A DNA stretch of 64,000 nucleotides, taken from contig JBAZKL010000003.1 of NCBI GenBank assembly GCA_041650835.1, forward strand, positions 163,682 through 227,681, given 5' to 3'. The stretch is from Candidatus Omnitrophota bacterium. Its GTDB lineage: Bacteria > Omnitrophota > Gorgyraeia > Gygaellales > Profunditerraquicolaceae. A program made the position numbers and the translations under genes. Below, piece by piece: positions 3,437-20,667 of the stretch (positions within the stretch are counted from its first letter, which is position 1; every line of letters begins with the position of its first letter). Under the pieces are notes generated by a model. The model was given only the letters and a program-made list of their open reading frames with translations. It searched no databases and was not told where the DNA came from.

Positions 3437-4003
3437 TTAGTCTTGAGAGATCAAATAATAAACATTAGCGGTAGAGCTATAACGGAAACCTCCCGTGGTC
3501 TGTGTCGCCCCAGGAGAAGCGGTCCCATCCAACTGGGTCTCCATCTTTTGCTCGGCAGCTAAAGGTACGGTACTGATCGTGATTACGCGGGTATTAGGCT
3601 GAGGAGCACCGGCAGTGCCGTCCCAGGCATACGAACCGACGTTCGCGTTTTCATCAGCCGCGGCATAATAGCTATAGTTACCGCTCCATCTTGCTAACGG
3701 CGGCCATTTCTCAATATACGGGCCATCCCAACCGGCAATTGTGGCAGTAGGAGTGGCGGCAATACCATTAGGAGCAGCACCGGCAGAAGCAGACGAAGTC
3801 GGCCAAATACCGCAATCAGAGTAAAATGACATAACTGCCGTCTTGATCGACCGGCAATCTTCAATACTGCTGGCAACCTTTGACTTTTCAATCGCCTTGA
3901 AGGCGTTCGGCGCGATGATCGCGGCTAAAATAGCGATAATAGCGATAACAACAATTAATTCAATCAATGTAAAACCTTTGTTTTTCATGTTTCCCCCTTT
4001 CAC
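3437..4003 (-). CDS. Type IV major pilin / pseudopilin paralog
   Basis: MKGGNMKNKG|[32 protein letters not shown]. The N-terminal ~35 aa after the leader are nearly identical to the pilin at 170..742. Translation may start at the internal Met, giving the leader MKNKG. A strong Shine-Dalgarno (AAGGGGGA) precedes the first ATG. Confidence 0.85.
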   Translation of the reverse strand: MKGGNMKNKGFTLIELIVVIAIIAILAAIIAPNAFKAIEKSKVASSIEDCRSIKTAVMSFYSDCGIWPTSSASAGAAPNGIAATPTATIAGWDGPYIEKWPPLARWSGNYSYYAAADENANVGSYAWDGTAGAPQPNTRVITISTVPLAAEQKMETQLDGTASPGATQTTGGFRYSSTANVYYLISQD

Positions 4004-4147: not shown

Positions 4148-5824
4148 TTAGCCCGATTCCAAGGTGACCCTGACCACTTCTTCAGTTGTTGTAACACCCA
4201 GCATCAGCTTATCTAACGCGGCTTTACGCAGGGTAGTTAAGCCTTCTTTTACGGCTACCTCGCGGATCACCTCTGCCGAGCAGCGCTTCAAGACCATTTG
4301 CTGAATACCCGGGGACATCTTTAAAAGCTCATAAATACCTACCCTGCCCTTATACCCGCTTTTATTGCATATCTGGCAGCCGCGTCCCCGGCTGAATTTA
4401 ATATCCTGGCCTATCTTTTCTTCTAACCCCAAGCTTTTAAGCAATTCAGGCGCGGGGGTATAATATTCCTTGCATTTTTCGCAGACCCGCCTGACTAAGC
4501 GCTGGGCCAAAATTCCCAATAATGATGAAGAGACGAGGAACGGCTCAACGCCCATATCAATTAAGCGCGTAAAAGAAGACGGCGAATCATTGGTATGCAG
4601 CGTCGAAAAAACAAGGTGGCCGGTGAGCGCTGCCTGTACCGCGATCTCAGCGGTTTCCCTATCTCTGATCTCTCCCACCATGACAATATCCGGGTCCTGG
4701 CGCAAAAAAGAACGCAGCGCCGAAGCAAAGGTCAGGCCCGCGATAGGATTGACCTGGACCTGGCGCATCCCCGGGAATTGATACTCAACAGGATCCTCAA
4801 CAGTCATAATATTGACATCTTCTTTATTAAGCATTTGCATGCTGGAATAAAGCGTCGTAGTCTTACCGCTGCCGGTAGGGCCGGTAACCAGGACGATCCC
4901 GTAGGGAGAGCTTAGGATCTCTTTAAATAAAGCCATCTCCCGGGAAGGGAACCCCAGCGATTCCAGGCCGAGAACCAGCCCTGTTTTATCCAAGATCCTT
5001 AATACTACATTCTCTCCATGGACCGTAGGGCAGGTGGAAACGCGAAAATCAATATTCTTACTGCCGATCTTCATCATAATACGCCCGTCTTGCGGCAGGC
5101 GCTTTTCCGCGATATCCAGATTTGACATGATCTTAAACCGGGATATGATCGCCCCCGAGAGGTCGCGCGGCAGGGACGGCTGATGACGCAGGATCCCGTC
5201 GATACGATAACGGACACTTAAAAGCTTATCCTCCGGCTCTATATGAATATCGGAAGCTTTCATCTGCACTGCCTGCACAATAAGATGATTGACTATTTTT
5301 ATGATCGGGGCTTCTTCACCGAGCTTTTCTCCGTCGGCAAGTTTATCTTTGTCGATAGAGGCGATGATCTGCTGTAAATTAAAAGCGGAACCCCCATAAT
5401 ATTGGTCCTGGGCTTTTCGAATATCTAATTCTTCGGCCAAAACCGGCTCTACATTAAGCTTGGTTATACGCTGGAGCTCATCGATGATAAAAACATTCTT
5501 CGGGTCCTGCATCGCAACCGTCAACGTATTCTCAACCATAAAAACAGGGATCAATTTATATTTTCTGGCAAATTCCTCAGGGATAAGCTTGATAACATCG
5601 GGTTCAATGATATAGCCGGCAAGGTTGAATTTAGCGATACCGGATTGAGAGGCCAGCGCCCGCTCAATTTCCTCCTGGCTTACCAAGCCATTTTTGAGCA
5701 AAATCTCTCCCAGCCGCTCACTTGAGAATTTCTGCTGCTCAAGGGCTTCTTTCAACTGAGCCTGAGTGATCAAGCCGCGCTCGATCAGTATTTCGCCTAA
5801 TTGTTTATGAAAACTTTCTGCCAT
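4148..5824 (-). CDS. pilB: Type IV pilus / type II secretion assembly ATPase, GspE/PilB family
   Basis: Two N-terminal T2SE_N-like repeats (LGEILIERGLITQAQLKEALEQQ and LGEILLKNGLVSQEEIERALASQ). Walker A GPTGSGKTTTLYS. The C-terminus carries the tetracysteine motif CEKC...CQIC. Confidence 0.9.
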   Translation of the reverse strand: MAESFHKQLGEILIERGLITQAQLKEALEQQKFSSERLGEILLKNGLVSQEEIERALASQSGIAKFNLAGYIIEPDVIKLIPEEFARKYKLIPVFMVENTLTVAMQDPKNVFIIDELQRITKLNVEPVLAEELDIRKAQDQYYGGSAFNLQQIIASIDKDKLADGEKLGEEAPIIKIVNHLIVQAVQMKASDIHIEPEDKLLSVRYRIDGILRHQPSLPRDLSGAIISRFKIMSNLDIAEKRLPQDGRIMMKIGSKNIDFRVSTCPTVHGENVVLRILDKTGLVLGLESLGFPSREMALFKEILSSPYGIVLVTGPTGSGKTTTLYSSMQMLNKEDVNIMTVEDPVEYQFPGMRQVQVNPIAGLTFASALRSFLRQDPDIVMVGEIRDRETAEIAVQAALTGHLVFSTLHTNDSPSSFTRLIDMGVEPFLVSSSLLGILAQRLVRRVCEKCKEYYTPAPELLKSLGLEEKIGQDIKFSRGRGCQICNKSGYKGRVGIYELLKMSPGIQQMVLKRCSAEVIREVAVKEGLTTLRKAALDKLMLGVTTTEEVVRVTLESG

Positions 5825-5841
5825 AGTATTTTAAATAATTA

Positions 5842-8800
5842 TCACCATAGGACTTGACGCAGGCGGGCATCCATTTCTTCCAATTTATTTAACCAGCTTT
5901 TCACCGCTTTTTCTTTCTTAACCTGAGATGCTTCCTGGCTGGACTGCCGCACCTGATTGGAGCTGCGTTTATTCATTTGATACTCCAACTGCTCTTTATC
6001 GAGCTGCGCCTGCTTACGCCTGTCGATTACCGTTTGCTGCTGGTCAACCTTGGTTTTCGCCGCCATCTCCCGCTTATCGAACAGCGGCTGCTGGCTTTGA
6101 CGCCGCTGCTGCCGTAATTCAGCCTGAAGCTGCCGGTCTTCTATTGCGCGCTGGCGCCTTTCTTGTGCCTGCGCGACAAGCTCTTCCTTATGCTGGCGCG
6201 CTTCTTCTCGAGCGAGCTGCGCCTGCTTTTTTCTCTCTTCTTTGGCAGCCTTCAATTGTTGAACACGCTCAAGCTTTGCTTTTTCCTCCGCGAGCTGTTG
6301 TTCATGGATCTGTTTTTCCTCCTGGGCCTTTTGCTCTACGAGTTGGAGCCTGGATTCTTCTATCTTTTTCAAAGTCTCTAATTTTTGCTGCAGAGCCTCC
6401 TGGTGCTGGGCAAGGCGCTGCTTTTTCAATTCCTGCTCCTGTAAAGCTATTTGGCGCTTTTGCTCTTCAAGCTGATGAATACGCTCCTGTTCCTGCTTTT
6501 CAGCCGCTAAACGTTTTTCTTCTTCCTCCTTAGCCAACTGTTCCAGGCGACTTTTTTCTTCTTCTTCAGCGAAAACACGGGCTGCCGCCGCAGCCTGTTT
6601 TTGCTCCAAAAGCTCTTTATGTTTTTCCGCGACCCTAAGCTTTCTTACCTCTGCCAGCCTTGAGCGCTCCACTTCTGCCTGCTTCTCAGCTGCCAGGCGT
6701 TTTTCTTCTTCCTGTTTAGCCTGCTGCTCCTGGCGCTGATATTCCTCTTTAAGCTGCTTCAGGCGCTCTTGCCGTTTGGCCTCTTCAGCCAAACGCATTG
6801 CTTTCTTGACCCCCGCTTGCTCTTCTGCCAGCTGCTTTTGCTTTTCCTGGGCCTCTTTATCCGCTGCCAACTGCTTCTCTTCCGCTTCCTTGGCCAGGCG
6901 TTCCTGGCGCTGCTCTTCTTCTTTAAGCTGCTTCAGGCGCTCTTGCCGTTTGGCCTCTTCAACCAAACGCATTGCTTTCTTGACCCCCGCTTGCTCTTCT
7001 GCCAGCTGCTTTTGCTTTTCCTGGGCCTCTTTATCCGCTGCCAGCTGCTTCTCTTCCGCTTCCTTGGCCAGGCGTTCCTGACGCTGCTCTTCTTCTTTAA
7101 GCAGCCTTAGGCGTTCTTCCCTTTTCGCCTGCCCAACCAAACGCATTGCTTTCTTGACCCCCGCTTGCTCTTCTGCCAGCTGCTTTTGCTTTTCCTGGGC
7201 CTCTTTATCCGCTGCCAACTGCTTCTCTTCCGCTTCCTTGGCCAGGCGTTCCTGACGCTGGGCCTCCTCCTGCGCGGCTACCGACTTTGCTTCGGCTGCA
7301 ATTCTTTTTTGTTCTAAAAGCTGTTTTCTTTTTTCCGCTGCATTAATCTTATTCTTTGTTTTCAACTCTGCCTGCTCAGCGCTAAGCTGCGCAGACTTTT
7401 CCTGAGCTTCTTTCTCCGCCGCCAGCCGCTTCTCTTCTTCTTCCTGAGCGAGCTGCTCCTCCGATTTCTTTTCTGCAACAGGCTTACGCAAAGACGCCTG
7501 TTCATTCTCTTGCGCTAATTTATTCTTAAGCTTTCCCCTTGCCTTCTTTTGTAATTTCTGTTTACGCAACTCTTCTTTTTGTATCCGGGCCTCTTCTAAA
7601 GAAACCTCTTTTCTTATCGCAAGCCAGGTATCGACATCTTCTGCCTGCTGCTCTCCTGCCGCAGAATCCTGCGGTAGGAGTGAGGGCTCAACCGGAGCTG
7701 TTGCCCTTTCCGGTTTAAGCGCTTCCTGAGGCTTTAAAGCTTCAACCGATTTTTCAACTTCCAGAGCTCTTTTTTTTTCCTGATCCGCTCCCGGCGGCGC
7801 AGATTGAGCGGCTTTCTCTTTTTCCTTTAGACGATCCTGTTTTTCTTGTATTAACTGCTGCTTTTTTTCATCCCTGAGGCGCGCCTGTTCCAACGCTAAT
7901 TGATCCCGGCGTTCTTGCTCCTTCTTTTCAGCCTCAAGGCGCTTTTGCGCTTCCTGCTTCATGCGCTCTTGCCTATCTTTCTTTTCTTCAGCTTTCTTTT
8001 TTAAGCGCGCCTCTTTTGCCTGTTGAACTTCAAGCCTGCGCGCCTCTTTCTGTTTTTCTAACGCGCCCTTTTGCGCCTTCAGCAATTGCTTTTGTTCTTC
8101 GATCTTAGCAAGATACTCCTGCTCCTGCTCGGTCAATTGCTGGGTACATTCCTGCTTTAATTTTTCCTTCTCTTGCTGGAGCTTCTTCTGCGCCGCCTCT
8201 TTTTGCTTCTGTTTTTCTATTTTTATTTTTTCGGCTTCCTGCTTTTTTTCTTCTTCGGCACGAGCGAGTTCTGCGGCGCGCTCTTTTTCTTCCGCCTGCC
8301 GCCTTAACTCTTCCTGTTTTCTTTCTTCAGCCAGAAGCTTTCTTTCTTCCCGGATCTTTTCTTTTGCCGCGGCTAATTCCTGCAGGTGTTCCTGCTTTTC
8401 CCGGGCTGCTTCTCGCCGCTCCTCTTCCCGCTGCTTAAGAAGCTCTTCCTTAGCCTTCTTTGCTTCTTCAAGCTTCTTGAGGCGCGCTTGTTTTATTTGT
8501 TCTTCCTGAGATTTCTTTTCTTCTGCTGCTGCCTGCTTCTCAGCTGCCAGGCGCTTTTCTTCCTCCTGCTTAGCTAACGCATCCTGGCGCTTTTGCTCCT
8601 CTGCTGCCTGCTTCTCGGCTGCCAGGCGCTTTTCTTCCTCCTGCTTAGCTAACGCATCCTGGCGCTTTTGCTCCTCTGCGACCTGCTGAAGGCGCGCTTC
8701 TTTTTTTTGCTGAGCGAGCTTCCTTTTTTCTTCTTTACGCTTTTCCAATTCGCTCAAGCGCTGCCTGCGCTCTTCTTCTTTTTGTTTTTTACTCAGCATC

Positions 8801-9507
8801 TTCCGGCGCTCCTGCTCCGCGCGCTCGGCTTCCAATTGCTGCTGCTGGCGCATCCGTTCTAATTCGAGTTTTTGCGTGATCAATTCCTGCTTCTTCGCTT
8901 CTATCTCCGCCAGGCGTGCCTGCGCCAAGCGCTCGCGCTCTAATTTTTCTTCATTTAATTGTTTTTGCTCTTCTTGCTTTACCATCTCATCTTTACGCCT
9001 GCGCTCCTCATCCTGGGCAAAAAAACGGGCTTGCGTGAAGACTCTTTTTTCTTCCTCCAGATAGATCTGCCGCTGGATCTCTTCTTCTTCCTTTATATAC
9101 TGGTCTATCCTGTTGACCAACGCGCTGATCCTGCCGTCTTCGCCTAAATATTCTGCCTGTATGCCTGAAACGGTTTTCGAAGCCGGCGAGGCTTCACCTA
9201 TTTTTCTGTCCACTCCGCAGGCAGGCATAGCTGGGGCGGGAAAAGACTCAAGGTGCCCTATCTGCATGGTTACCGGCGACTGCTCCTGCAGAAAATCATT
9301 AATCTCTTGTTTCCGGCGTAAGATCTCTTCCTTTTTCTTACGCAGAGAACGAATATACTCTTCCTCTGCCTTGACCTTGCGCTGCATTTCTTCAAGGCGC
9401 AGCTCTTTTTCAGCCATATTATTATCTTGAGCGTAAACAACCCCCGCTCCCCAAACCATGCATCCCGTCACATAAAACCCAGCGATTATTAAAAATAGTC
9501 TTTTCAT
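5842..9507 (-). CDS. Giant coiled-coil lipoprotein (1221 aa, E/K/Q/A/R-rich) with internal tandem repeats
   Basis: Signal peptide with lipobox (FYVTGC). The remainder is almost entirely heptad-like charged low-complexity sequence. A 171-bp (57-aa) unit is repeated three times (about 6770-7260), and an ~80-bp unit twice (about 8520-8680). Antisense plus-strand ORFs also look repetitive for the same reason. Confidence 0.8.
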   Translation of the reverse strand: MKRLFLIIAGFYVTGCMVWGAGVVYAQDNNMAEKELRLEEMQRKVKAEEEYIRSLRKKKEEILRRKQEINDFLQEQSPVTMQIGHLESFPAPAMPACGVDRKIGEASPASKTVSGIQAEYLGEDGRISALVNRIDQYIKEEEEIQRQIYLEEEKRVFTQARFFAQDEERRRKDEMVKQEEQKQLNEEKLERERLAQARLAEIEAKKQELITQKLELERMRQQQQLEAERAEQERRKMLSKKQKEEERRQRLSELEKRKEEKRKLAQQKKEARLQQVAEEQKRQDALAKQEEEKRLAAEKQAAEEQKRQDALAKQEEEKRLAAEKQAAAEEKKSQEEQIKQARLKKLEEAKKAKEELLKQREEERREAAREKQEHLQELAAAKEKIREERKLLAEERKQEELRRQAEEKERAAELARAEEEKKQEAEKIKIEKQKQKEAAQKKLQQEKEKLKQECTQQLTEQEQEYLAKIEEQKQLLKAQKGALEKQKEARRLEVQQAKEARLKKKAEEKKDRQERMKQEAQKRLEAEKKEQERRDQLALEQARLRDEKKQQLIQEKQDRLKEKEKAAQSAPPGADQEKKRALEVEKSVEALKPQEALKPERATAPVEPSLLPQDSAAGEQQAEDVDTWLAIRKEVSLEEARIQKEELRKQKLQKKARGKLKNKLAQENEQASLRKPVAEKKSEEQLAQEEEEKRLAAEKEAQEKSAQLSAEQAELKTKNKINAAEKRKQLLEQKRIAAEAKSVAAQEEAQRQERLAKEAEEKQLAADKEAQEKQKQLAEEQAGVKKAMRLVGQAKREERLRLLKEEEQRQERLAKEAEEKQLAADKEAQEKQKQLAEEQAGVKKAMRLVEEAKRQERLKQLKEEEQRQERLAKEAEEKQLAADKEAQEKQKQLAEEQAGVKKAMRLAEEAKRQERLKQLKEEYQRQEQQAKQEEEKRLAAEKQAEVERSRLAEVRKLRVAEKHKELLEQKQAAAAARVFAEEEEKSRLEQLAKEEEEKRLAAEKQEQERIHQLEEQKRQIALQEQELKKQRLAQHQEALQQKLETLKKIEESRLQLVEQKAQEEKQIHEQQLAEEKAKLERVQQLKAAKEERKKQAQLAREEARQHKEELVAQAQERRQRAIEDRQLQAELRQQRRQSQQPLFDKREMAAKTKVDQQQTVIDRRKQAQLDKEQLEYQMNKRSSNQVRQSSQEASQVKKEKAVKSWLNKLEEMDARLRQVLW

Positions 9508-9517
9508 AAGATAACCT

Positions 9518-10801
9518 CTAATTATCCATCGCCTGTATTTTCCCCGCGACCGTCTTTTTAACTTCCTCTAAAACCCTTAAATCCTGCTCTTGCCTGCGCA
9601 GGTCCTGTTCCAATGCCTCTCTTTCTGAAACCAGGGAAGAATGTTTTTTATTCAACACTTCTACTTTCTTGACCGCTTCTTTCTGCTTATCTTTTTCCCG
9701 GGCCTCAGCTAACAACAATGCTTTTTCTTGCTTCTGCTTATCTTGATAATACGCTTTTCCGAGGCCGAACCGCTCCTGCTGCCCCATCTTAGCATATTCG
9801 TTAGGCGTAATGATAGTAGGAGAAACAAAAATCATTAATTCTGTCTTATCCCTGGTATCCTTCTGGCTCTTAAACAAATAGCCCAATACGGGAATATCTC
9901 CCAACAGAGGGATCTTGGTCTGGCCTTTTGTAACTTTATCTTTAATTAAACCTCCGATTATTAATGTTTGCCCGTTCCCTATAATAACCCTGGTTGTCGC
10001 TTGCCGTTTATCGATAATAGGGACATTATACGTTAAGCCGGAAATAGTCAAGGGCAAATCTCCCGTTTTCTCGCTTACCTGAGGGTCAAGATCCATAGCA
10101 ATTTGCCCATCTTCATTAATAGTCGGGGTAACCTTCAAGCTTATTCCTATTTCTTCAAAATGTATCGTCCAGGTGACCGTTTGATTGCCGGCATCGTCGA
10201 TCGTCACCGACGGCTCTGCCCAAGGATAACTCTGGATAATCTTTAATTCCGCCTGCCGGTTATTAATCGTTGTTATCCGGGGGGAAGAAAGGATATTCGT
10301 ATCCATCGCGTTAGCCAGCGTCTGCACGACAATATTAATATTATCGTCGAAAATAGCAAAGGTAAAAGGAGATTCCGATGTCCCGCCGGTGGCTTGGAGC
10401 GGAGGATAAATGGTATTTTTGTATGAAAGGCTCTGCGTGAGCGGGCCCGGCAACGCTCCTAAAGTACTTGCCGTTCCGGCCTTTAAACTTCCGATAGGGA
10501 GATATCCTTTGTCCGCGAATAACTGCCAGTTGACCCCCAAAGCGTGTTCCTTTTGCAATTTTGATTCAACGACCCGGGCTTCGATCAAAACCTGCTGCGG
10601 AGGCGCATCCGCCATCGCCAGATAATCCTCAACACGCTGGACGTTATCAGGATAATCGATCACAACAATAGAATTCGGCTCATTCCCATAGAGCACCTTT
10701 CCGTCTGTAGATAACAACGACCTAAGATTATCACTGATCTGCTGAGCATGGACTATGGAAAAACAAAAAAGAAAAAATAAAACGCACCCTATTCTTTTCA
10801 T
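9518..10801 (-). CDS. Secretin, GspD/PilQ family, short form with a C-terminal coiled-coil tail
   Basis: Signal peptide. Secretin_N-like SIVVIDYPDNVQRVEDYL. Secretin core motifs VLIEARVVE and TLIIGGLIKD...KIPLLGDIPVLGYLFKS...ELMIFVSP. The last ~80 aa are K/E/Q-rich coiled coil. The start is preceded by AAGGAG. Confidence 0.8.
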   Translation of the reverse strand: MKRIGCVLFFLFCFSIVHAQQISDNLRSLLSTDGKVLYGNEPNSIVVIDYPDNVQRVEDYLAMADAPPQQVLIEARVVESKLQKEHALGVNWQLFADKGYLPIGSLKAGTASTLGALPGPLTQSLSYKNTIYPPLQATGGTSESPFTFAIFDDNINIVVQTLANAMDTNILSSPRITTINNRQAELKIIQSYPWAEPSVTIDDAGNQTVTWTIHFEEIGISLKVTPTINEDGQIAMDLDPQVSEKTGDLPLTISGLTYNVPIIDKRQATTRVIIGNGQTLIIGGLIKDKVTKGQTKIPLLGDIPVLGYLFKSQKDTRDKTELMIFVSPTIITPNEYAKMGQQERFGLGKAYYQDKQKQEKALLLAEAREKDKQKEAVKKVEVLNKKHSSLVSEREALEQDLRRQEQDLRVLEEVKKTVAGKIQAMDN

Positions 10802-10819
10802 TTATTCTCCTTCTGGCTA

Positions 10820-11797
10820 TTAATTGCTTGTACTACTGCTCGTGCTACTGGTTGTAGATGCGCTGGTAGTCGAGGAGCCGGTACCGCTTTCAGTGGTCAC
10901 CACACCCACCACATCCGAAGCCTTTAAATATTTCATCTTAAAGACCTTACTGGTCATACGTTGGTCTATCTGCTGAAGATATGCTTCAATACGCGCGACA
11001 TAAGGAGGATAATCGATCACGATGATCGAATTCGGCACCTGCCCCAAAAGGATCTTTCCTTTCGCGGAAATAAGGTCATAGATCGTGCTTTCTTCCTTTT
11101 TCGCCTCTTCAAGTGCAGCGTCACCGGAGCCTGCGGCGGCCGAAGGCTGCGCCACAGTCGGAGAAGCCGCCTCGGTGCCTTGTGTCGCCTTCGCAGTATC
11201 AAGCAGCTTCCTAGCTTGAATATATTTTAAAACAACCATTTTGGTGATTAAATGCGGGCTGACCTTGACGATAGAGCCTTTTTTCTCCAGCACCAGATTA
11301 CTGATCTCGGCGATCCCTTCAAGAGCTTCTTCTAAGGAAATATTCGTAAAACTGGCGGTGATCTTTCCCTGGATATCTTTATCAACTAAAATATTCAAAT
11401 TATAATCATGCGCGATAACACGGAACAAATCGGACAATTCCACATTCCGCAGCTCGATCGAATACACCGGCAATTCATTTTCCAGGCGCTTGATCTCTAA
11501 AACCGGGACAGGAGCGGTCAATTCTTTCTTTACTTCTTTTTTCTTTTCCGCCTCTTTGCCGTCTTTGCTCTCCTGGTCATCGGCTTCTTCTTTTTCATCT
11601 CCCGGCTCTTCTTCACCATCATCGACACTGGAACTTTTTTGCCCGGCGCTTGACGCCGCAGGACTCATTTGAGCCGGTTTTTCATCAGCTTCATTTTCCA
11701 CCCCTGGCTGCGGCCTGGCAAACAAAGAATTCCCGCAATTGTAAAGCATAAACAAAAAACTGATCAACCCGATGAGCCCTATTTTCTTTAGTGTCAT
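10820..11797 (-). CDS. Secretin N-domain protein, the periplasmic N0/N1-like half of a split secretin
   Basis: Signal peptide with a lipoprotein-like Cys (LYNCG). An acidic linker, then secretin_N motifs (ILLGQVPNSIIVIDYPPYVARIEAYLQQID), and a Ser/Thr-rich C-terminal tail. It ends 18 nt before the secretin gene, which has its own RBS. Confidence 0.65.
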   Translation of the reverse strand: MTLKKIGLIGLISFLFMLYNCGNSLFARPQPGVENEADEKPAQMSPAASSAGQKSSSVDDGEEEPGDEKEEADDQESKDGKEAEKKKEVKKELTAPVPVLEIKRLENELPVYSIELRNVELSDLFRVIAHDYNLNILVDKDIQGKITASFTNISLEEALEGIAEISNLVLEKKGSIVKVSPHLITKMVVLKYIQARKLLDTAKATQGTEAASPTVAQPSAAAGSGDAALEEAKKEESTIYDLISAKGKILLGQVPNSIIVIDYPPYVARIEAYLQQIDQRMTSKVFKMKYLKASDVVGVVTTESGTGSSTTSASTTSSTSSSTSN

Positions 11798-13854
11798 TTT
11801 TTAAGTCCTTGTTCTGAATTCAAATCGTTGCTGCCGATGCTGGATTCGAATTCTGGTTTATCAAGCCCGTGTGCCCATATGATCGTCACCTGATTTTTGA
11901 AAACACCGTATACGGTAAAATCCTTCGTCCCGGGATTAAAAAAAAGATCACACCGCCCCGCCTTAAAAATCCCCTTTTTATTTTCTTCTAAGGCAATACC
12001 CGGGTATCTCTTCTGGAGCCACTGTTTATGCCCTTCGGCAAATTCGAGCGCGTCTTCAATGGTATCCCAGGATGACACAAAACGTATGAGACGGTTCCCC
12101 CGGTTATTTTCATACACCATGAGCCGGTCATCCAGCCAGCCGGAAACTGACTGATCAACGGCCTGCTTATCCAATAAACTGCTGAAAGACAAAAGGAGCG
12201 TGAATTCTCCTAAAGTAGTTTCATAGATCTTTTTCCATGGCTCGGAAGGCTTAACACCCTCATCAAGAACAGAGGGAGTTTTTTCTGCCGTAATTTCCCT
12301 GCCCGCGTATTTATGCGGATGCATGATCTCTTCCATGGAAACCGGAGGCGCCTTATAAATATTGCCGATATCGCTCCAATTGAACTGTCGTAAATACGAC
12401 TGGATAAACCGGGCGCCATAACCGTATATATTATACAGGATATTTCGCTTTGCATACTGCGATTGTTTCAAAAATTTATCTTCCAGCAGGACAAAAACAT
12501 CTTCAAGATGCTGCAGCTTCTTATCATCCTTGTTCAAAATATATTCAAGCATTACCGCGGAAGCATCGCCCTCTATGAGGGACTGCCGGGCAAACGCCAG
12601 GTCAAAATTATCCCGGGTATGAAGGCGGTCGGAGAATTTTTCAATATTGTAGTTTTTGTCCTGGAACGCGTGCGCCAATTCATGGACTACGACGATCTCG
12701 GCAAAATGAGGGGGAAGCCAATCCCCGATCAGGATCGTCTTGGTTTGAGGGTCATATAACCCCGCGATGGAAGAAATCTCCGAATTAAACGTACTTTCAA
12801 GGTAATCCGCGTCCTCGTTGACGACCCCTAACCATTTCATAACAAAACTTTCATTCTCCCGGACTTCGGGAGGCAGATCACGCTCCAATTGTTCACGTAA
12901 AAATTCCCCGAATGACACACGGTCTTTATATTCGACATTGATCGCCTCGGGCTTGCCCCAACCGCGTATCTGCATGACCGACTGCGTCAGACGAGGAAGC
13001 ATCCCTTTAAGCTTTTCTTTTTCTTGAATAACCTTATCTTCGACAAACGCGGGGACCTGTGTTGCACCCGGCACGCCGAAATCGTAATACTTGACGGTCT
13101 GCAGGATATACATATCGCCCAGCTTGCCTTCAGCGCGCAAGAGATGCGGCAAATACGTATCGGCGTCGATCCAGGTCTTAACAAAGATCTCTCCAACCAC
13201 ATTCCAATACGTCAACATCTCCGCGCCCAGCTTATACTGCAGCACAAAACAATCTTTACCGTTCCTTTTCTCCATACCCGCAAGCTTAACGGTTGAAGCA
13301 TCAGCCGCGCCCGCGTTAATTGAAGCAAGGCTGTTTAAGATCCCGTATTCTACCGCTTGTTGCGCGTCTTTAGCGGAAATCTTCAATTGTTCGCATTTCC
13401 ATTCCCGCTTATTCAGGTCCCACGTAAAAGGGATACCCCTGATCTTATACGTTTGCACCCATTGAGAAGTTGAAATGCTCTTTGATAAAATCGATGATAC
13501 GCTTACCCTGCCGGTTGTCCGGTAATCATCAATGTTGGTAATATCGCTCTTAAAATCCGATTTGATATGAAAAAGAGGGGTTTCCAGCCAAGTTTCCATT
13601 TCCATGCGCACAGAACGCTCTTTAAAAAATGCCGAGGTGGTTTTTTCCAAAACTTGATAGGGGGTACGCTGAACAGTTACCTGAGGGAAGCCGCAGGGCG
13701 CTTGATGTTCTTTTTTGTTTTCCACGCAGGTATCCGGTTTCGCAACCATACAGTCGCTTAAATTAACCCGCTGCCAGCCGGTGAGTAACGGCAGCACCAT
13801 AGCTAAGAAAATAACTCGAGAGGTTCCTTGTAATCCTGACCCTGTTTTCATCAA
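11794..13854 (-). CDS. Secreted zinc metalloprotease-like protein with HExxH
   Basis: 686 aa with an N-terminal signal sequence. IVVVHELAHAFQD contains an HExxH zincin motif. The 4-nt overlap (ATGA) with the downstream-adjacent gene suggests operon coupling. Confidence 0.55.
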   Translation of the reverse strand: MMKTGSGLQGTSRVIFLAMVLPLLTGWQRVNLSDCMVAKPDTCVENKKEHQAPCGFPQVTVQRTPYQVLEKTTSAFFKERSVRMEMETWLETPLFHIKSDFKSDITNIDDYRTTGRVSVSSILSKSISTSQWVQTYKIRGIPFTWDLNKREWKCEQLKISAKDAQQAVEYGILNSLASINAGAADASTVKLAGMEKRNGKDCFVLQYKLGAEMLTYWNVVGEIFVKTWIDADTYLPHLLRAEGKLGDMYILQTVKYYDFGVPGATQVPAFVEDKVIQEKEKLKGMLPRLTQSVMQIRGWGKPEAINVEYKDRVSFGEFLREQLERDLPPEVRENESFVMKWLGVVNEDADYLESTFNSEISSIAGLYDPQTKTILIGDWLPPHFAEIVVVHELAHAFQDKNYNIEKFSDRLHTRDNFDLAFARQSLIEGDASAVMLEYILNKDDKKLQHLEDVFVLLEDKFLKQSQYAKRNILYNIYGYGARFIQSYLRQFNWSDIGNIYKAPPVSMEEIMHPHKYAGREITAEKTPSVLDEGVKPSEPWKKIYETTLGEFTLLLSFSSLLDKQAVDQSVSGWLDDRLMVYENNRGNRLIRFVSSWDTIEDALEFAEGHKQWLQKRYPGIALEENKKGIFKAGRCDLFFNPGTKDFTVYGVFKNQVTIIWAHGLDKPEFESSIGSNDLNSEQGLKK

Positions 13855-14310
13855 CTACGACGCTCCCGGAACAACCGTTCCGATTTTAATAATATACTCC
13901 CCTTGAGTATCTTTTAAAATAACATCTTCGGCATTAATAACCACAACCTGCTTATTATCAAGGATGTCCCCGACCTGATAGACCTGTCCGTTAATAATTG
14001 CCTTACTTTTATTATCAGCCGAATGGATGATCGCTGATACCGTTAAATATTCAAGCGGGATTTGCGCGCTTTTATTTTCGAAAGACGATTCCTCGTCTGT
14101 GGTTAAAAAAGGGTTCAGACGGGGTAACGAGTCAAAATATGAAGCCTGCGAAGCCTGCGCCTGTACAGCTTCGGTTACCGGAAGAACGGCCTGCTTTTTG
14201 AGCGGAACAATAGAGTCATCCGTAAGCTTCGTTATTTCATCTTCAGGGCTGCAACCCGCGCCCAAAAAAGCAAACAATAAAATAAGTAAAATGGCCCTTA
14301 ACTTATTCAA
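13855..14310 (-). CDS. Small lipoprotein, hypothetical
   Basis: MNKLRAILLILLFAFLGAGCSPED gives a signal peptide plus lipobox LGAGC. The start overlaps the HTH gene by 8 nt. Confidence 0.5.
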   Translation of the reverse strand: MNKLRAILLILLFAFLGAGCSPEDEITKLTDDSIVPLKKQAVLPVTEAVQAQASQASYFDSLPRLNPFLTTDEESSFENKSAQIPLEYLTVSAIIHSADNKSKAIINGQVYQVGDILDNKQVVVINAEDVILKDTQGEYIIKIGTVVPGAS

Positions 14311-14494
14311 TGCTGCCCCTTATGATTTTACTTAATTCATTAAGGTCCTGTTGGCTGTATTGCCGCCAATGATTGATCGAGTTACGCTTTGGCCTTGGGA
14401 AAATCCCCTTTTTCTCATACCGAAAAAGGGTTTGTTTAGAGATCCCTAATTTCTCGGCAGCTTCCTTAGTTGTATATATTATTTCTTGTTCCAT
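14303..14494 (-). CDS. Small AlpA/excisionase-like (HTH_17-type) DNA-binding protein, free form
   Basis: 63 aa. TTKEAAEKLGISKQTLFRYEKKGIFPRPKRNSINHWRQYSQQDL matches the AlpA/Xis/MerR N-terminal HTH pattern. It is a close paralog of the N-terminal domain of the ORF at 30025..30678, with identity through ...KKGIFP.P.RN.IN.W..YS..DL. Confidence 0.75.
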   Translation of the reverse strand: MEQEIIYTTKEAAEKLGISKQTLFRYEKKGIFPRPKRNSINHWRQYSQQDLNELSKIIRGSIE

Positions 14495-14574
14495 ATGCTG
14501 TAACTAATTGTGACACAGCCAACAACGCTTAGAAAAGCCCGGATAAATAATAAAAATTCGCGTAACCATATCTG

Positions 14575-14620
14575 ATACTATTTGACTATACTTTAAACTA
14601 TTAGATATCAATTGTCAAGA
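14575..14620 (-). promoter_or_regulatory. Putative sigma70-like promoter plus conserved operator module upstream of the free HTH gene
   Basis: The minus strand has TTGACA (14618..14613), a 17-nt spacer and TAAAGT. The conserved motif GTCAAATAGTAT (14586..14575) lies at the predicted transcription start. The same two motifs, with the same ~35-nt spacing, occur upstream of the HTH-pilin fusion at 30702-30746. Confidence 0.45.
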
Positions 14621-14682
14621 GTTATATTATTTACTCAATAATATCGCAACCATCTGCAATATCGATAAATCCGTAAAATTAA

Positions 14683-15516
14683 CTATCCCGCAGCAAGCTT
14701 CAACAACTTGTTTTTGCCTTCTTTCGAAAGCTCTATGAATTTTATACCTAAATAATATCGTTTCCCTTCCTGTATATTACAATAAACGATCTCCCCCTTT
14801 GCCTGGACCGTTTCAGCTTCACTTATTATGCCGGAATTCAGTTTAAATTCTATAGATACTTCCAGGCCTTTAGGCAAAAACAAAAACACCTGCAAACCGA
14901 CAGCCATACCCGATTCCGATATATTGCAGGAAACCCCGTCAATAGGCGAGGCGCAACGCAGCCGTACCTCCTGCCCTTCAAGGGAAACGCGCACCGGAAC
15001 GGACAAGCTCCGGCGGCCGGATTCCCGATGGAAAGGGACCCCCCGTAAAGGATTCTTCTTGAACAGTAAATTTTCCAATTTAAAGAAATCCGCTTCTTGC
15101 CCGTAATATGAATCAAGCGCCTGCTGGATAGCGCGGGGTGAAGCGATCAAAGGCTCTACCGCCGATTCGCTTAAAGCAGACAGGCGGTCCAGGAAAGCCG
15201 TATTAAAAGGGTCTGAACAGGCAATATATAACGTATTCTTTACTTTAAATAACGGAATACACTGGTATTCGCGGCAGAATGATTCGCTTAATCCCCGGAA
15301 AACATCCGCGTTGATCGCATATTCCGTTAGTGAAACATAATTAAGGGCGCTTTCCTGGGCAAAAAGAATAAAAACATCTTCCTCGGTGAGATGGCCCCGC
15401 CTGACCAAAACACTCCACATGGATTTACCGAGCCTGAGAGCTTCTTGCTTGGCGGCAGAAAGCTGTTCTGAAGTAACCCGCTTGCTCCGGATAAGTTTTA
15501 ATTCAAACTCTTCCAT
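14683..15516 (-). CDS. T2SE_N (GspE N-terminal-like) domain fused to a PilZ domain; a putative c-di-GMP receptor
   Basis: The N-terminal ~140 aa resemble the GspE/PilB N-terminal domain (LGKSMWSVLVRRGHLTEEDV...CREYQCIPL...NTLYIACSDP). The C-terminus has PilZ motifs RESGRR (RxxxR) and NISESGM (D/NxSxxG). Confidence 0.7.
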   Translation of the reverse strand: MEEFELKLIRSKRVTSEQLSAAKQEALRLGKSMWSVLVRRGHLTEEDVFILFAQESALNYVSLTEYAINADVFRGLSESFCREYQCIPLFKVKNTLYIACSDPFNTAFLDRLSALSESAVEPLIASPRAIQQALDSYYGQEADFFKLENLLFKKNPLRGVPFHRESGRRSLSVPVRVSLEGQEVRLRCASPIDGVSCNISESGMAVGLQVFLFLPKGLEVSIEFKLNSGIISEAETVQAKGEIVYCNIQEGKRYYLGIKFIELSKEGKNKLLKLAAG

Positions 15517-15537
15517 TGTATAATGAGGTGCCCTTGA

Positions 15538-16122
15538 TTACAAAGAAGCGCTTCCCTTGTCCTGCTGCGGATAATATTTTTTAATGAAATCGGCCAGGTT
15601 TTCCGAGACTTTTTGCTCTTCTATAATATACATGCCTCCTTTATTCAATTCTTCGGGAGATACCTGAGGGTACTTCTTCTGCATCGCTTCAAGCCATTCA
15701 GCCTGCTGACGGGCGATCTTGATCAATACCCGGTTGTCGCGGATCACGTCAAAATAATCGAGCGACTGCTTCACGATCATTTTTAATTCTTCGTTTTCCC
15801 AGGGCTTGGTAATAAACCGGTACACCTGCCCCTTATTGATAGCCTGAATAGCGGCTTCCAGGTCGGGATAACCGGTAAAAAGTATCCGGATCGAATCAGG
15901 GTAAAGCTGCTTGACCTTGACCAGGAAATCAACCCCCTGTCCGTCGGGCAGGCGATTATCGGAGATCACCAGGTCAACCCCGCCCAAACTCTTGAGCTTA
16001 TCAATGCCCTCCTGAACACAGCCGGCAGTATTGATATCCCTGTCATCGGCGCGCAGCAACCTGCTTAAGCTGCTTAAGATATTCTGTTCATCATCAACGA
16101 TCAATATAGTATGGTTAGGCAT
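15538..16122 (-). CDS. Response regulator with CheY-like receiver and a C-terminal domain of unknown function
   Basis: ILIVDDEQNIL...VISDNRLPDGQG...ITKPW shows the receiver Asp and KP motifs. The ~70-aa C-terminal extension has no obvious DNA-binding HTH. Confidence 0.8.
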   Translation of the reverse strand: MPNHTILIVDDEQNILSSLSRLLRADDRDINTAGCVQEGIDKLKSLGGVDLVISDNRLPDGQGVDFLVKVKQLYPDSIRILFTGYPDLEAAIQAINKGQVYRFITKPWENEELKMIVKQSLDYFDVIRDNRVLIKIARQQAEWLEAMQKKYPQVSPEELNKGGMYIIEEQKVSENLADFIKKYYPQQDKGSASL

Positions 16123-16474
16123 TCTTTTGCTCCTCTAAGTTTTTAACATAGCGGTCGATATACTCCTTCCCGGAAGAAGGAAAGACCTTGGTGAACATGA
16201 TCCCCATGCCCGCCGCTTCCGCGGTGCCTGCCGGCCGGCTCCACTGCACGACCCCTTCCGCGTGAATGATCTTTTTTTCTTTCCCGCCTTCATCAAACTC
16301 AAACATCACTTCAATCTTGGCGTTAGCCGGCTCAACCTTATCGGTTGAAACGAACATGCCTCCCGCGGAAATATCGCGGGTTTCGACATACTGCCAAAAA
16401 CTTCTTCCCCTGACCTCCACCCGCAACTTAACAAACGCCCTTTTATATTGCCTCTTTTCGTCAAAAGCTCCCAT
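16115..16474 (-). CDS. PilZ domain protein, c-di-GMP binding
   Basis: RQYKR (RxxxR) and DISAGGMFV (DxSxGG) are canonical PilZ motifs. 119 aa. Confidence 0.8.
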   Translation of the reverse strand: MGAFDEKRQYKRAFVKLRVEVRGRSFWQYVETRDISAGGMFVSTDKVEPANAKIEVMFEFDEGGKEKKIIHAEGVVQWSRPAGTAEAAGMGIMFTKVFPSSGKEYIDRYVKNLEEQKNA

Positions 16475-16784
16475 CGCTTCTCCTGCGTTTTTTGTTTACT
16501 ATTAACTTTTTAGCCGTGGCATCCTCAACCCCGGCTTGACCGGCCGTAAAACTAAAAGAATATTACTGCTGCTTCCGGCTAAGCGCGATATCGTACAAAC
16601 TAAGCGCTATACTACAAAACAGGCAGATCACCGCGTTAATTATCAAAGCCCCGGGAAGCGCTCCCCATTTGATCTCTTCAATCCCTAATAATTTAAACAT
16701 GCCGCCGATTACCATTGCAAACAAACGCTATTGCCAGGAACAGATCATCTCCTAAATTATAAACCTTATTTATCCCACCCCTCC

Positions 16785-17633
16785 TTATCCCTGAGGCGCC
16801 CTCGGTAATTGCACCACAAACGTTGTCCCCGTTCCAACGGTACTTTCAACCTTCACGTCTCCGCCATGGTGTTTAATAATATTGTAACTGACCGATAACC
16901 CCAACCCCGTACTTTTCTTGGTCGAAAAAAACGGGTCGAAGATCTTCGGCAAGACATCTTTCGCGATACCGGAGCCGGTATCGACCACTTTAACATAGAC
17001 GCTTTTAGCATCTTCATAGGTGCTCATCGTAATCGTCCCTTTATCGGCAATGGCCTGGCTGGCATTGATCAGCAAATTAAGGAACACCTGGGACAATTGC
17101 GTCGTATCCGCGGATATCTTTGATTTTGCCTGATAGTCCTTGATGACCGTCACCTTATACTTGATCTCATTCCAGACGATCGAAAGCACCGACTCCAGGA
17201 CCTGATTGATCTCGATCAAGGAATTCTGCGTTTCGCTTCTTCGGGAAAAGGTCCGCAGGTCGGAAACGATCTTCTTGATACGTACCGCCCCGTCGAGTGA
17301 CTCCTGGTTCATCGCTTTCATATCTTCGATCAACACCTTGTTTTCTTTTTCGGCCAGAGAGATCTTTCCTTCGATCTGCTGGGTATAATCTATAAGGCTT
17401 TGCAGGTTACTGATCAAGAAGCCGAGCGGATTATTGATCTCATGCGCGATGCCGGCGGCCAACGTCCCCAGCGACGCCATCTTTTCCATGTGCACGATCT
17501 GGGCTTCGGCGTCCTTTACCAGCTTTGTCTTCTCATCGACCTTTTTTTTCCAAATACCGTTCATTACAACGGTATATACCCCGCAGGCTATACCGCTTAT
17601 CGCAACCACTACGAGTATTCCCCCCATATTCAT
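16785..17633 (-). CDS. Sensor histidine kinase
   Basis: One N-terminal TM segment and a coiled coil. H-box AGIAHEINNPL. HATPase_c motifs NLLINASQA and VVDTGSGI...GLGLSVS. Confidence 0.85.
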   Translation of the reverse strand: MNMGGILVVVAISGIACGVYTVVMNGIWKKKVDEKTKLVKDAEAQIVHMEKMASLGTLAAGIAHEINNPLGFLISNLQSLIDYTQQIEGKISLAEKENKVLIEDMKAMNQESLDGAVRIKKIVSDLRTFSRRSETQNSLIEINQVLESVLSIVWNEIKYKVTVIKDYQAKSKISADTTQLSQVFLNLLINASQAIADKGTITMSTYEDAKSVYVKVVDTGSGIAKDVLPKIFDPFFSTKKSTGLGLSVSYNIIKHHGGDVKVESTVGTGTTFVVQLPRAPQG

Positions 17634-17733: not shown

Positions 17734-18972
17734 CTAGCTCCCTTTAATGACGCGAATCATATTCCACAACGGCAGGAATATTGCCAGTGCCATCCCGATA
17801 ACCACCAACCCCAGGACCGCCGTCATCACCGGCTCGATCATCGTCGTAAGATTTTTTATGGCGTTCTTTACTTCCAAAGTAAAATACTCGCACAAGGAGT
17901 CCAGCATGAGCGGTAAAGCCCCGCTCTTCTCTCCCACGGAGATCATGTAACCGACCAGGCGCGGGAAGAATTTACTGTTCAGCACTGCCCCGGAAATACC
18001 TTTACCGTCGGCGACATCGCGCTTAATAGCTTCTATCTCTTTTGCCAGGACGACATTGCCCAGCGTCATTCCGACGATATCTATCGTATTGAGCACCGGC
18101 AAACCCGCCTGGTATAAAACACTTAACATCGAGGCGAAGCGCAGCATCGTTATTTTCGTGTATACCTTTCCGTAAATATATATCTTGAACTTTAAGCCGT
18201 CCCACAAAAATCTCCCCGAAGACGTATTGACGTACCATTTCACAAAAACGAACAAGCCGGCGAGTAACGGGAACAGGATATACCAATAATACCGCAAGGC
18301 GTCGCTGATAAAGATCATCACCTGTGTCGGCAGGGGAAGCTCAACCTTTGCCGCCTTATAGATCTGGGCGAACTGAGGGATAACAAAGACCGAGAGCACG
18401 CCGACCGCGATCACCAGCGATATCACCACCATGATCGGATAACGAAGCGCTGCCTTAATATTCGTCTGGGTCTCAAGGTCTTCTTCCAGCATATGCGCCA
18501 GGCGCAGCAATACTTTTTCCAGGACGCCGGCGGATTCCCCCGCGATCACCGTATTCACGTACAGATCGGAAAAAACACCCGGGTGCTTGGACATGGCCTG
18601 AGATAAACTGGCTCCCCCTTCCACGTCGCGCACCACCTGATGCAAAGCTTCTTTAAGGGCGGGGTCCTCGCATTGTTCCGCCAAAGCGCTTAACCCTTCC
18701 AGGATAGGGACCGCTGCTTTAATGATCGTCGCGAACTGCCGCGAAAAAATAACCAACGATTCTGTTTTTACTTTTTTTGACTGGCCGAAAAGCCCCCCCG
18801 CGGAAGCCCTCGCAGGAGAGACAAACGCCGATTTGGCTTTAACGCTGACATTAACCGGCATATACCCCATCTTCGCCAGCTTCGTCGTCAACTCAACTTC
18901 AGTGGCGGCATCCATTTCGCCGTTAACAAGCTTGCCTTCCGCATCAACCGCCCGATAAGAATACGTCGACAT
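17734..18972 (-). CDS. pilC: Type IV pilus / type II secretion inner-membrane platform protein, GspF/PilC family
   Basis: Two T2SSF-like repeats (GLSALAEQCEDPALKEAL...GGASLSQAMSKHPGVF and KSGALPLMLDSL) with three TM segments. 412 aa. Confidence 0.9.
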   Translation of the reverse strand: MSTYSYRAVDAEGKLVNGEMDAATEVELTTKLAKMGYMPVNVSVKAKSAFVSPARASAGGLFGQSKKVKTESLVIFSRQFATIIKAAVPILEGLSALAEQCEDPALKEALHQVVRDVEGGASLSQAMSKHPGVFSDLYVNTVIAGESAGVLEKVLLRLAHMLEEDLETQTNIKAALRYPIMVVISLVIAVGVLSVFVIPQFAQIYKAAKVELPLPTQVMIFISDALRYYWYILFPLLAGLFVFVKWYVNTSSGRFLWDGLKFKIYIYGKVYTKITMLRFASMLSVLYQAGLPVLNTIDIVGMTLGNVVLAKEIEAIKRDVADGKGISGAVLNSKFFPRLVGYMISVGEKSGALPLMLDSLCEYFTLEVKNAIKNLTTMIEPVMTAVLGLVVIGMALAIFLPLWNMIRVIKGS

Positions 18973-20666: not shown

Positions 20667-20667
20667 A

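Follow-up and report, generated by a model that had tools for sequence, protein, structure and literature searches.

A conserved two-gene secretin in Omnitrophota, very probably cut within its pore-proximal N domain

Secretins are the outer-membrane gates of type II secretion systems (T2SS), type III secretion systems (T3SS), type IV pili and filamentous phages, and the assembly of their periplasmic N-domain rings as well as the coupling of these rings to the inner-membrane platform are still being worked out case by case. A stretch of 64,000 nucleotides from a Candidatus Omnitrophota bacterium (assembly GCA_041650835.1, contig JBAZKL010000003.1, positions 163,682 to 227,681; called the window here) raises the question of how such a gate can be made if it is encoded by two adjacent open reading frames, ORF1 and ORF2: is this a broken gene, a pair of independent proteins, or one secretin made of two chains? 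A first-pass annotation of the sequence had already read the locus as a genuinely split secretin. Our analysis leaves little room for doubt that ORF1 and ORF2 are a real, conserved and functional two-gene secretin, and we consider it rather likely that the co-transcribed genes provide a single secretin of a T2SS/type IV pilus-like machine, the two halves of which would dock onto each other in the periplasm. The two ORFs and their junction are:

10820 to 11797, minus strand: ORF1, the exported periplasmic half of the secretin (325 amino acids; from the ORF list)
9518 to 10801, minus strand: ORF2, the pore-forming half of the secretin (427 amino acids; from the ORF list)
10802 to 10822, minus strand: the junction, consisting of TAA TAG, CCAGAAGGAGAA and TAA, followed by the ATG of ORF2

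ORF1 and ORF2 are co-oriented, lie in the same reading frame with a gap of 18 nucleotides, and have exact database matches under the locus tags WC695_07325 and WC695_07330. The junction reads AAT TAA TAG CCA GAA GGA GAA TAA ATG, i. e. it holds three in-frame stop codons, and a ribosome-binding site (AAGGAG, 10807-10812) is located five nucleotides before the ATG of ORF2. A scan of the gap for terminator-like sites found none, and the start of ORF1 overlaps the stop codon of the upstream gene (ATGA). The independent ribosome-binding site and the clean stop that had been put forward against a simple frameshift are thus both present. The Sec signal peptide of ORF2, the common reading frame and a strand-like block in ORF1 are features beyond those of the first-pass annotation. 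The two chains are composed as follows:

11717 to 11797, minus strand: signal peptide of ORF1 (about residues 1-27, MTLKKIGLIGLISFLFMLYNCGNSLFA followed by RP; read from the sequence)
11255 to 11461, minus strand: N0/STN domain of ORF1 (residues 113-181; Pfam, AlphaFold2, Foldseek)
10955 to 11248, minus strand: complete N domain (N1) of ORF1 (residues 184-281; Pfam Secretin_N)
10895 to 10948, minus strand: strand 1 and beginning of helix 1 of the split N domain, orphaned in ORF1 (residues 284-301, SKVFKMKYLKASDVVGVV)
10823 to 10891, minus strand: Ser/Thr-rich tail of ORF1 (residues 303-325; from the sequence)
10745 to 10801, minus strand: Sec signal peptide of ORF2 (residues 1-19, MKRIGCVLFFLFCFSIVHA followed by QQ; from the sequence and the homologues)
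10604 to 10744, minus strand: truncated N domain of ORF2 (residues 20-66; second part of helix 1, strands 2 and 3, helix 2)
9794 to 10603, minus strand: secretin pore domain of ORF2 (residues 67-336; Pfam, phmmer, Foldseek)
9521 to 9784, minus strand: C-terminal helical tail of ORF2 (about residues 340-427; AlphaFold2)

The pore is found in ORF2 only, as had been proposed. ORF2 consists of a signal peptide, an N domain without its first strand, the secretin core and a long C-terminal helix, and it carries the pore domain of the secretin superfamily: Pfam PF00263 matches residues 163-331 with 164.3 bits (cut-off 27.5). The closest solved relatives are XcpQ (5wln; phmmer E-value 2.9e-42), the PilQ of Vibrio cholerae and several GspDs, with the XcpQ, PilQ and GspD structures ranging from 1e-27 to 1e-42, and a Foldseek search with the model returned PulD, PilQ, InvG, BfpB, RcpA and pIV, as expected for a secretin. 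The N domain in front of the pore is incomplete, and the whole of ORF2 reaches only 23.1 bits with Pfam Secretin_N, at profile positions 11-69 and below the cut-off of 28.2.

ORF1 contributes what is usually found on the same chain as the pore. It is composed of a signal peptide, a disordered acidic/basic region, the N0 and N1 domains, the first strand of a further N domain, and the Ser/Thr-rich tail; PF00263 was not found in it. Its N0 stretch is matched by Pfam STN (residues 134-181, 27.2 bits, slightly below the cut-off of 28.4), GspD N0 (115-158) and FecR_C (115-177), and by Foldseek to the N0-N1 domains of MxiD, XcpQ and GspD; ORF1 also matches N0-N1 of the PilQ proteins of Neisseria and Myxococcus and of HofQ. 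Secretin_N covers residues 185-280 (32.2 bits against 28.2, profile positions 1-66). In the NCBIfam PilQ model, ORF1 accounts for positions 5-168 and ORF2 for positions 125-427. Thus, N0 and a complete N domain are not on the same polypeptide as the pore, whereas in secretins they usually are.

When the concatenated chains (733 residues, unpaired homologues) were modelled with AlphaFold2, the N0 domain and the secretin core were predicted confidently, the N0 region with a block-mean predicted local distance difference test score (pLDDT) of 96-98 (residues ~101-190 of the concatenation). A second AlphaFold2 run, described below, gives N1 the order strand, helix, disordered stretch, helix, strand, strand, helix: after strand 1 and a short first part of helix 1, this domain is interrupted by a low-complexity insert of about 45 amino acids (approximately residues 201-244) that is poorly conserved among the homologues. 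N1 is followed by QRMTSKVFKMKYLKASDVVGVV and then by the tail of 23 residues (ESGTGSSTTSASTTSSTSSSTSN), so that an extra conserved strand-like block, KVFKMKYLKASDVVG, stands between the N domain and the tail. The motif SI[IV]VIDYP...YL reported for both ORFs is indeed present as NSI[IV]VIDYP...YL (NSIIVIDYPPYVARIEAYL in ORF1, NSIVVIDYPDNVQRVEDYL in ORF2), but it does not mark an intact N domain in each of them, since the second domain is divided.

The Ser/Thr-rich tail attributed to ORF1 is real (Ser or Thr at 19 of the 23 residues); the lipoprotein-type cysteine attributed to it was not confirmed. Cys21 stands in the context L-Y-N-C, which is not the canonical lipobox [LVI][ASTVI][GAS]C, the close homologue P0124 (75% identical) has a tyrosine at this position, and only 3 of 119 ORF1-like and 5 of 116 ORF2-like proteins possess a canonical lipobox. 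Most ORF1-like signal peptides end with ...FAQ, a site of the signal-peptidase-I type. We have therefore rejected the reading of ORF1 as a lipoprotein.

Downstream of its core, ORF2 has about 90 K/E/Q/R-rich residues. AlphaFold2 folds residues ~349-426 into one continuous helix of 78 residues (block-mean pLDDT 93-98) preceded by a short helix, in good agreement with the K/E/Q coiled coil of about 80 residues predicted from the sequence. T2SS secretins have a compact S domain where ORF2 has this one long helix, and no family of Pfam or NCBIfam covers the tail. A K/E/R/Q-rich tail of 70-100 amino acids is present in almost all ORF2-like proteins and in the unsplit ones as well; since the unsplit forms carry it, the tail is not tied to the split. 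The long helix characterises the family and did not result from the split, and it probably serves as a protein-binding module at the position that is occupied by the pilotin-binding S domain in other secretins.

Is the split a peculiarity of this genome? Two protein surveys, each of 120 clusters, argue that it is not. Among the 120 best ORF2-like clusters (50-81% identity), lengths range from 385 to 446 amino acids if two fusions (P0080, P0082) and two fragments truncated at the N-terminus are set aside; in nearly all of them a signal peptide directly precedes Q[QE].S..I..LLS..GKVLYG.EPNSI, and about 115 of the homologous clusters have this N-terminus in common. The ORF1-like clusters are 245-395 amino acids long, and 119 homologues have the architecture of ORF1. 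In 115 of the 120 clusters the protein ends with ID.KM.S+VFKLKYLKA.[DE]VVG and a low-complexity tail of 25-60 residues, mostly rich in Ser, Thr, Gly and Ala and in some cases acidic. Among the 119 ORF1-like proteins, VFKLKYLKA is at least 90% conserved at six of its nine positions and at least 60% at all nine, the weakest being the first Val (~60%) and the last Leu-Lys (~80%); this equals the conservation of N0, whereas the insert and the tail that flank the block are not conserved. Many of the ORF1-like and ORF2-like partners are encoded on the same contig with neighbouring locus tags.

The genome survey, with one genome per GTDB species, yielded 39 loci, almost all labelled Omnitrophota, of which 37 were informative. 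The ORF2-like gene directly follows the ORF1-like gene in 36 of these 37, and the remaining locus (L039) encodes a single chain. The gaps vary from -1 to 54 nucleotides, the stop codon is TAA, TAG or TGA, and the frame relation is variable. Both the split and the gene order are kept at 50% identity (L001) and at 38% identity (L004); in the latter pair, the ORF1-like protein ends with ...KMFKLKYLSVKDLF and a charged tail. A continuous gene in relatives together with a strain-specific stop codon, which had been named as the finding that would speak for a pseudogenised secretin, was not what we observed: continuous orthologues are few exceptions, and the split is the dominant and ancient state in Omnitrophota. 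A different arrangement was seen in Omnitrophica bacterium 4484_213 (L040, 2863-4802), where the ORF located before the ORF2-like gene resembles ORF1 in its N0 part only (residues 1-104 of the core query); in this genome, the periplasmic half may have been reduced further or may be arranged in another way.

Where exactly is the protein cut? A canonical N domain for comparison is present in the window itself, in a paralogous secretin that forms a single chain:

22650 to 24065, minus strand: paralogous single-chain secretin (471 amino acids; N0, one N domain, core)

Its N domain has strand 1 (KLFKLNN), helix 1 (ADAATLKVTLAKVLS), strand 2, strand 3 (NSIIVTD) and helix 2. Mapped on this order, strand 1 and the start of helix 1 are found in the C-terminal block of ORF1, and the rest of helix 1, strands 2 and 3 and helix 2 in the mature N-terminus of ORF2 (ISDNLRSLLS...). 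The two pieces complement each other in the Secretin_N profile: ORF2 residues 20-70 alone score 26.6 bits over positions 15-69, and if they are joined to ORF1 residues 278-302, the block supplies positions 1-14 and the match extends over the complete profile (1-69 of 69) with 34.6 bits, above the cut-off of 28.2. Since ORF1 has strand 1 of a second N domain in addition to its complete one, and ORF2 has the remainder, the cut lies inside a domain.

The unsplit relatives point to the same position. Five proteins (P0241, P0390, P0391, P0396, P0245) are single chains with the order N0, N1, strand, Ser/Thr linker, rest of the N domain, secretin, and they align colinearly with concatenations of ORF1 and ORF2; concatenated homologue pairs from the same contig also aligned well. 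When ORF1 is aligned with P0241 and P0245, its orphan strand falls on strand 1 of their second N domain and its Ser/Thr tail on their Ser/Thr linker, which makes the tail the counterpart of the linker in unsplit chains; the linker of P0241 lies within the second Secretin_N match of this protein (250-343). The insert in N1 of ORF1 is located at the position homologous to the cut, and for this reason low-complexity inserts can be regarded as a trait of the family. Taken together, we are confident that a disordered insert in the pore-proximal N domain is the site of the cut. The remaining single-chain relatives possess just one N domain, which is of the N1 type in P0235, P0392, P0394, P0395, P0397, P0398 and P0404 and of the strand-block type in P0080, P0082, P0242, P0257 and P0393; P0082 is located in the same gene order (L003). 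The gene of P0391 is part of the order ABC (ATP-binding cassette) ATPase, two unknown genes, MerR-like, GspB/C-like, secretin, a protein of 878 amino acids without Pfam match, and ATPase.

We built a neighbour-joining tree from the pore domains, with the in-window paralogue as root. Nearly all of its deepest branches are of the split type, with the single-chain P0257 also near the base, and the other single chains are scattered in shallower clades. Moreover, all split forms have the same junction of signal peptide and mature protein. Because this junction is common to them and a repeated invention of the signal peptide is unlikely, we infer that the gene was split once, long ago, and that re-fusions or deletions occurred occasionally thereafter; the tree is only indicative here. 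Since the cut is ancient, is kept throughout the phylum and does not mark a broken gene, the separately exported products of ORF1 and ORF2 must assemble into one channel.

How, then, could two exported chains become one secretin? It is tempting to propose the following scenario. The ancestral gene would have been cut in the disordered Ser/Thr-rich insert of the N domain, and the tail of ORF1 would be the leftover linker. Each product, equipped with its own Sec signal peptide, would be exported separately; ORF2 would form the outer-membrane pore with a partial pore-proximal N domain, and ORF1 would provide the periplasmic N0 and N1 domains along with the missing strand 1 and helix start of the ORF2 domain. 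In the periplasm, the orphan strand of ORF1 could then dock non-covalently on the incomplete N domain of ORF2. As the N1-N3 domains of secretins are strand-helix-strand-strand-helix folds, in which the first strand is part of a three-stranded sheet, such docking would rebuild a three-stranded, two-helix N domain from two chains, and it would tether the N0-N1 ring, and via N0 the inner-membrane platform, to the pore. Based on the sequences, we regard such strand complementation as having a somewhat better than even chance of being the way in which the halves associate.

Several points weigh against this scenario. In the model of the concatenation described above, the junction was misaligned: MAFFT had placed N1 and the strand block of ORF1-like proteins on the N domain and the start of the pore of ORF2, and in mixed alignments of unpaired ORF1-like and ORF2-like rows one of the two groups is always misaligned. 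Because of this error, the model says nothing about docking, and only its N0 domain, core and tail helix were used. For a second AlphaFold2 run, ORF1(96-325) was linked to ORF2(20-337), with the five unsplit orthologues as bridges and 124 ORF2-like rows in a verified alignment. This model did not reproduce the docking: KVFKMKY extends the last helix of N1, with block-mean pLDDT values falling from 83 to 67 and 46, and the N domain of ORF2 is helix-strand-strand-helix without a third strand. Since only six sequences covered the ORF1 part and the model was a monomer, we count this failed prediction as weak evidence against docking and not as a refutation. Finally, the tree is based on a simple distance method and 271 columns and has no support values.

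The strongest rival to strand complementation, a reading that we hold to be unlikely, is that the halves do act as one secretin and are held together by other means: by stacking of the N-domain rings, by the C-terminal helices of ORF2 or by the neighbouring coiled-coil protein, with VFKLKYLKA serving, for example, a ring contact or the contact with a GspC/PilP-like protein. It would account for the failure of AlphaFold2 to dock the block on the N domain of ORF2, and it finds support in the conserved long helical tails of ORF2-like proteins, in the coiled-coil/TPR (tetratricopeptide repeat) extensions of the pore protein in some relatives, and in the genes that follow, i. e. a signal-peptide coiled-coil protein after the ORF2-like gene in L001 and the protein of 878 amino acids without Pfam match after the unsplit gene in L044. 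However, the block fits the first strand and helix start of Secretin_N and completes the partial match of ORF2, it is the covalent first strand of that domain in the unsplit orthologues, and the helical tail is also present in forms that are not split. Much less probable is the idea that ORF2 is a self-sufficient minimal secretin, similar to the phage protein pIV or to short secretins made of N3 and core, and that ORF1 is an independent periplasmic protein next to it for historical reasons. Short secretins are known among the solved structures (pIV, RcpA, and GspD constructs of 387-420 amino acids), and the split halves of rhizobial T3SS secretins are differently regulated, with an extra function suggested for RhcC1 (PMC3973906). 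Yet the tight adjacency of the two genes in 36 of 37 genomes, the repeated natural fusions of both halves, the GspC/PilP-like gene that remains directly upstream of ORF1-like genes, and the retention in ORF1 of N0 and N1, which in other secretins are meaningful only when attached to a pore, all speak for a joint function. The last possibility, a pseudogenised secretin, a sequencing or assembly error or read-through of the stop to give one chain, could invoke the common frame of the two ORFs in the window and the continuous gene in a few relatives, but it has practically no chance given the three in-frame stops with their TAA-TAG tandem, the ribosome-binding site, a signal peptide that would otherwise sit in mid-protein, purifying selection on both halves and a split shared by over 100 independent assemblies that differ in frame, gap and stop codon, and the conservation of the split led us to reject it in all three versions.

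If the halves are indeed joined by strand complementation, the ORF2 pore could be inserted first, and the attachment of the N0-N1 ring of ORF1, and possibly its release, would be a separate, later step. The C-terminal helices, arranged in a ring and each about 12 nm long, and the coiled-coil protein encoded next would then form an extra periplasmic scaffold across the envelope of these cells, which are very small and possibly attached to a host. This wider picture of a domain split across two separately exported polypeptides and rebuilt in the periplasm, in a modular secretin with an additional envelope-spanning scaffold, is tentative and less likely than not. In any case, the locus offers a natural dissection of secretin assembly, in which the pore and the N0-N1 coupling module come from different genes, naturally fused controls exist, and VFKLKYLKA is the predicted docking element. 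It also helps annotation: the corresponding Omnitrophota genes are now often called 'hypothetical protein' or 'secretin and TonB N-terminal domain-containing protein', and pilus and secretion clusters have repeatedly been implicated in the presumed host-dependent lifestyle of Omnitrophota.

Does the helical tail of ORF2 have a partner in the next gene, as the first-pass annotation had suggested?

5842 to 9507, minus strand: signal-peptide coiled-coil protein of 1221 amino acids, the next gene after ORF2 and a possible partner of the secretin tail

This K/E/Q/A-rich protein has no Pfam or NCBIfam match, and its VTGC fits a lipobox, whereas its counterparts in L001 have no cysteine. Within the gene, a 174-bp repeat occurs in 3.1 copies (95% identical) and a 75-bp repeat in 2.2 copies (at 6728-7260 and 8526-8687), and these tandem repeats suggest that it has recently expanded; the region 5842-9507 has a strong AT skew of -0.4 to -0.5. 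BLASTP of the ORF2 tail against the 1221-residue protein gave only compositional matches (best E = 0.05), and we have rejected a link by homology between the two in the window. At the same position, L001 encodes much shorter homologues, two coiled-coil proteins of 343 and 447 amino acids, and L044 the 878-residue protein. In L001 (10001-13683), the last ~50 residues of the ORF2-like P0112 (...KKLEEAVLKEEKNLKVMEVSKDSIIEKRKGLIKK) nearly recur at the end of the following 343-residue protein (...KKLEIEILKEEENLKALEASKNSIIEKRKELIKK), which points to a partial duplication or a shared interaction motif, and the second coiled-coil protein ends like the 1221-residue protein (...W...VE..D.WIRKNLW and ...SWLNKLEEMDARLRQVLW).

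Extended tails of 180-430 residues were observed in P0243, P0246, P0248, P0256, P0412 and P0419, four of them with single TPR units (LY..A..LY....Y..A...F..V....PGY) spaced by charged helices; all six are pore proteins of the split type, and in the first four named the longer tails are coiled coils interspersed with TPR units. Such extensions could be a built-in pilotin-like module. A recurring association of secretins with coiled-coil and TPR proteins is visible from the coiled-coil genes of L001, from these tail extensions, and from the paralogous cluster, in which genes for all three stand in a row. The case for a functional link between the tail helix of ORF2 and the coiled-coil protein is circumstantial, and such a link is possible but doubtful.

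The surroundings fit the machine proposed for the secretin. The genes concerned are:

13855 to 14310, minus strand: protein of 151 amino acids, weakly GspB/GspC/CdsD_C-like (weak Pfam T2SSB, T2SSC and CdsD_C matches)
11794 to 13854, minus strand: protein of 686 amino acids, encoded after the GspB/C-like gene and before ORF1 (metallopeptidase-like; matches to the Hvo_1808 family and DUF6782)
4148 to 5824 and 18999 to 20765: T2SSE ATPases, the latter being the PilB-like ATPase of the paralogous cluster
3437 to 4003 and 170 to 742: N_methyl/T2SSG pseudopilins (Pfam)
17734 to 18972: ORF of 412 amino acids, PilC-like by its position and the T2SSF genes at syntenic positions of L001 only
2456 to 3169 and 1702 to 2463: ABC-associated genes; a third ORF at 883 to 1698 has only a sub-threshold TPR_2 match

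With T2SSE ATPases, pseudopilins and the positional PilC-like ORF beside it, the secretin is accompanied by T2SS/type IV filament machinery. A GspB/C-like gene is located directly upstream of the ORF1-like gene, or of the unsplit secretin, in L001, L003, L004 and L044, and the 151-residue protein is a candidate for the inner-membrane partner of N0; the 686-residue gene is absent from this position in these four loci. An ABC-transporter ATPase gene and two proteins of ~250 amino acids of unknown function accompany the secretin cluster in the window (1702-3169) and in the distant relatives L004 and L044.

The paralogous secretin is part of a second cluster:

21313 to 22653, minus strand: coiled-coil protein of the paralogous cluster (446 amino acids)
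20668 to 21309, minus strand: TPR protein of the paralogous cluster (213 amino acids)
24160 to 24630, minus strand: GspB/CdsD_C-like protein before the paralogous secretin
24641 to 25258, minus strand: PilO/GspM-like protein before the paralogous secretin
14683 to 15516, minus strand: MshEN and PilZ protein (Pfam scan), in the regulatory block between the clusters

Both clusters have a GspB/C-like gene, a secretin and a coiled-coil protein in parallel order as well as a PilB-like ATPase, and TPR and PilC-like proteins are found in the paralogous one. In contrast to ORF1 and ORF2, the paralogous secretin is one chain with one uninterrupted N domain and a C-terminal tail of only ~25 amino acids. 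Both clusters are conserved together in L001, in the order single-chain secretin, coiled-coil, TPR, ATPase, PilC, PilZ proteins, MerR-like, GspB/C-like, ORF1-like, ORF2-like, coiled-coil proteins, ATPase, pseudopilins, PilC, PilM. The regulatory block that separates the clusters in the window (14303-17633, minus strand) also encodes, as read from the sequences, MerR-like (63 amino acids), response-regulator-like (194) and histidine-kinase-like (282) ORFs; an ORF of 119 amino acids is PilZ by position only, with reference to the PilZ gene of L001. The synteny of the MerR-like and MshEN/PilZ genes is conserved in relatives. The block as a whole suggests control by cyclic di-GMP.

How does the Omnitrophota pair compare with known secretins? 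Our full-text literature searches returned nothing on Omnitrophota secretins or on split secretins of T2SS or type IV pili, and the Rhc T3SS as the only precedent for a split. A split secretin gene is a hallmark of the rhizobial-type T3SS, with RhcC1 (NolW) and RhcC2 and, in the T3SS-2 of Pseudomonas syringae, HrcIIC1 and HrcIIC2, and its significance there is unknown (PMC3574062, PMC3973906). The likeness is one of organisation only: ORF2 is outside the SctC branch (113.9 bits against a cut-off of 238.45 for TIGR02516), the rhc genes are separated by other genes or lie on different segments whereas the pair described here is 18 nucleotides apart, and the neighbours of the pair are T2SSE, T2SSF and pseudopilin genes and not T3SS genes. 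ORF1 and ORF2 rather belong to the GspD/PilQ-like branch, with signal peptides on both halves and a cut that maps inside an N domain. GspD (XcpQ, 5wln; Klebsiella pneumoniae PulD, 6hcg) is the top match of the ORF2 N domain and core in sequence and fold, ORF1 has N0 and N-domain modules as in GspD, and GspE-, GspF- and GspG-like genes are nearby. However, GspD is one chain with the order N0-N1-N2-N3-secretin-S domain, whereas here two chains have two N domains, each with a low-complexity insert, and a helix of ~78 residues takes the place of the S domain; the cut-off of the GspD model (TIGR02517, 351.35 bits) is not reached by either half (ORF2 230.1, ORF1 37.8). The likeness to PilQ, HofQ and MshL consists of the N0-N1 part of ORF1 and of PilB-, PilC-, PilM- and PilO-like genes and MshEN/PilZ proteins nearby. 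Unlike PilQ, the pair has no AMIN domains and is made of two polypeptides, and the scores remain below the cut-offs of PilQ (TIGR02515, 284.35 bits; ORF2 206.5, ORF1 65.6) and MshL (TIGR02519, 250.2 bits; ORF2 168). Split secretins as such are therefore known from the Rhc T3SS, and the Omnitrophota pair is not a new class of machinery but a new form of split in another secretin branch, with adjacent genes and a cut that very probably lies inside an N domain.

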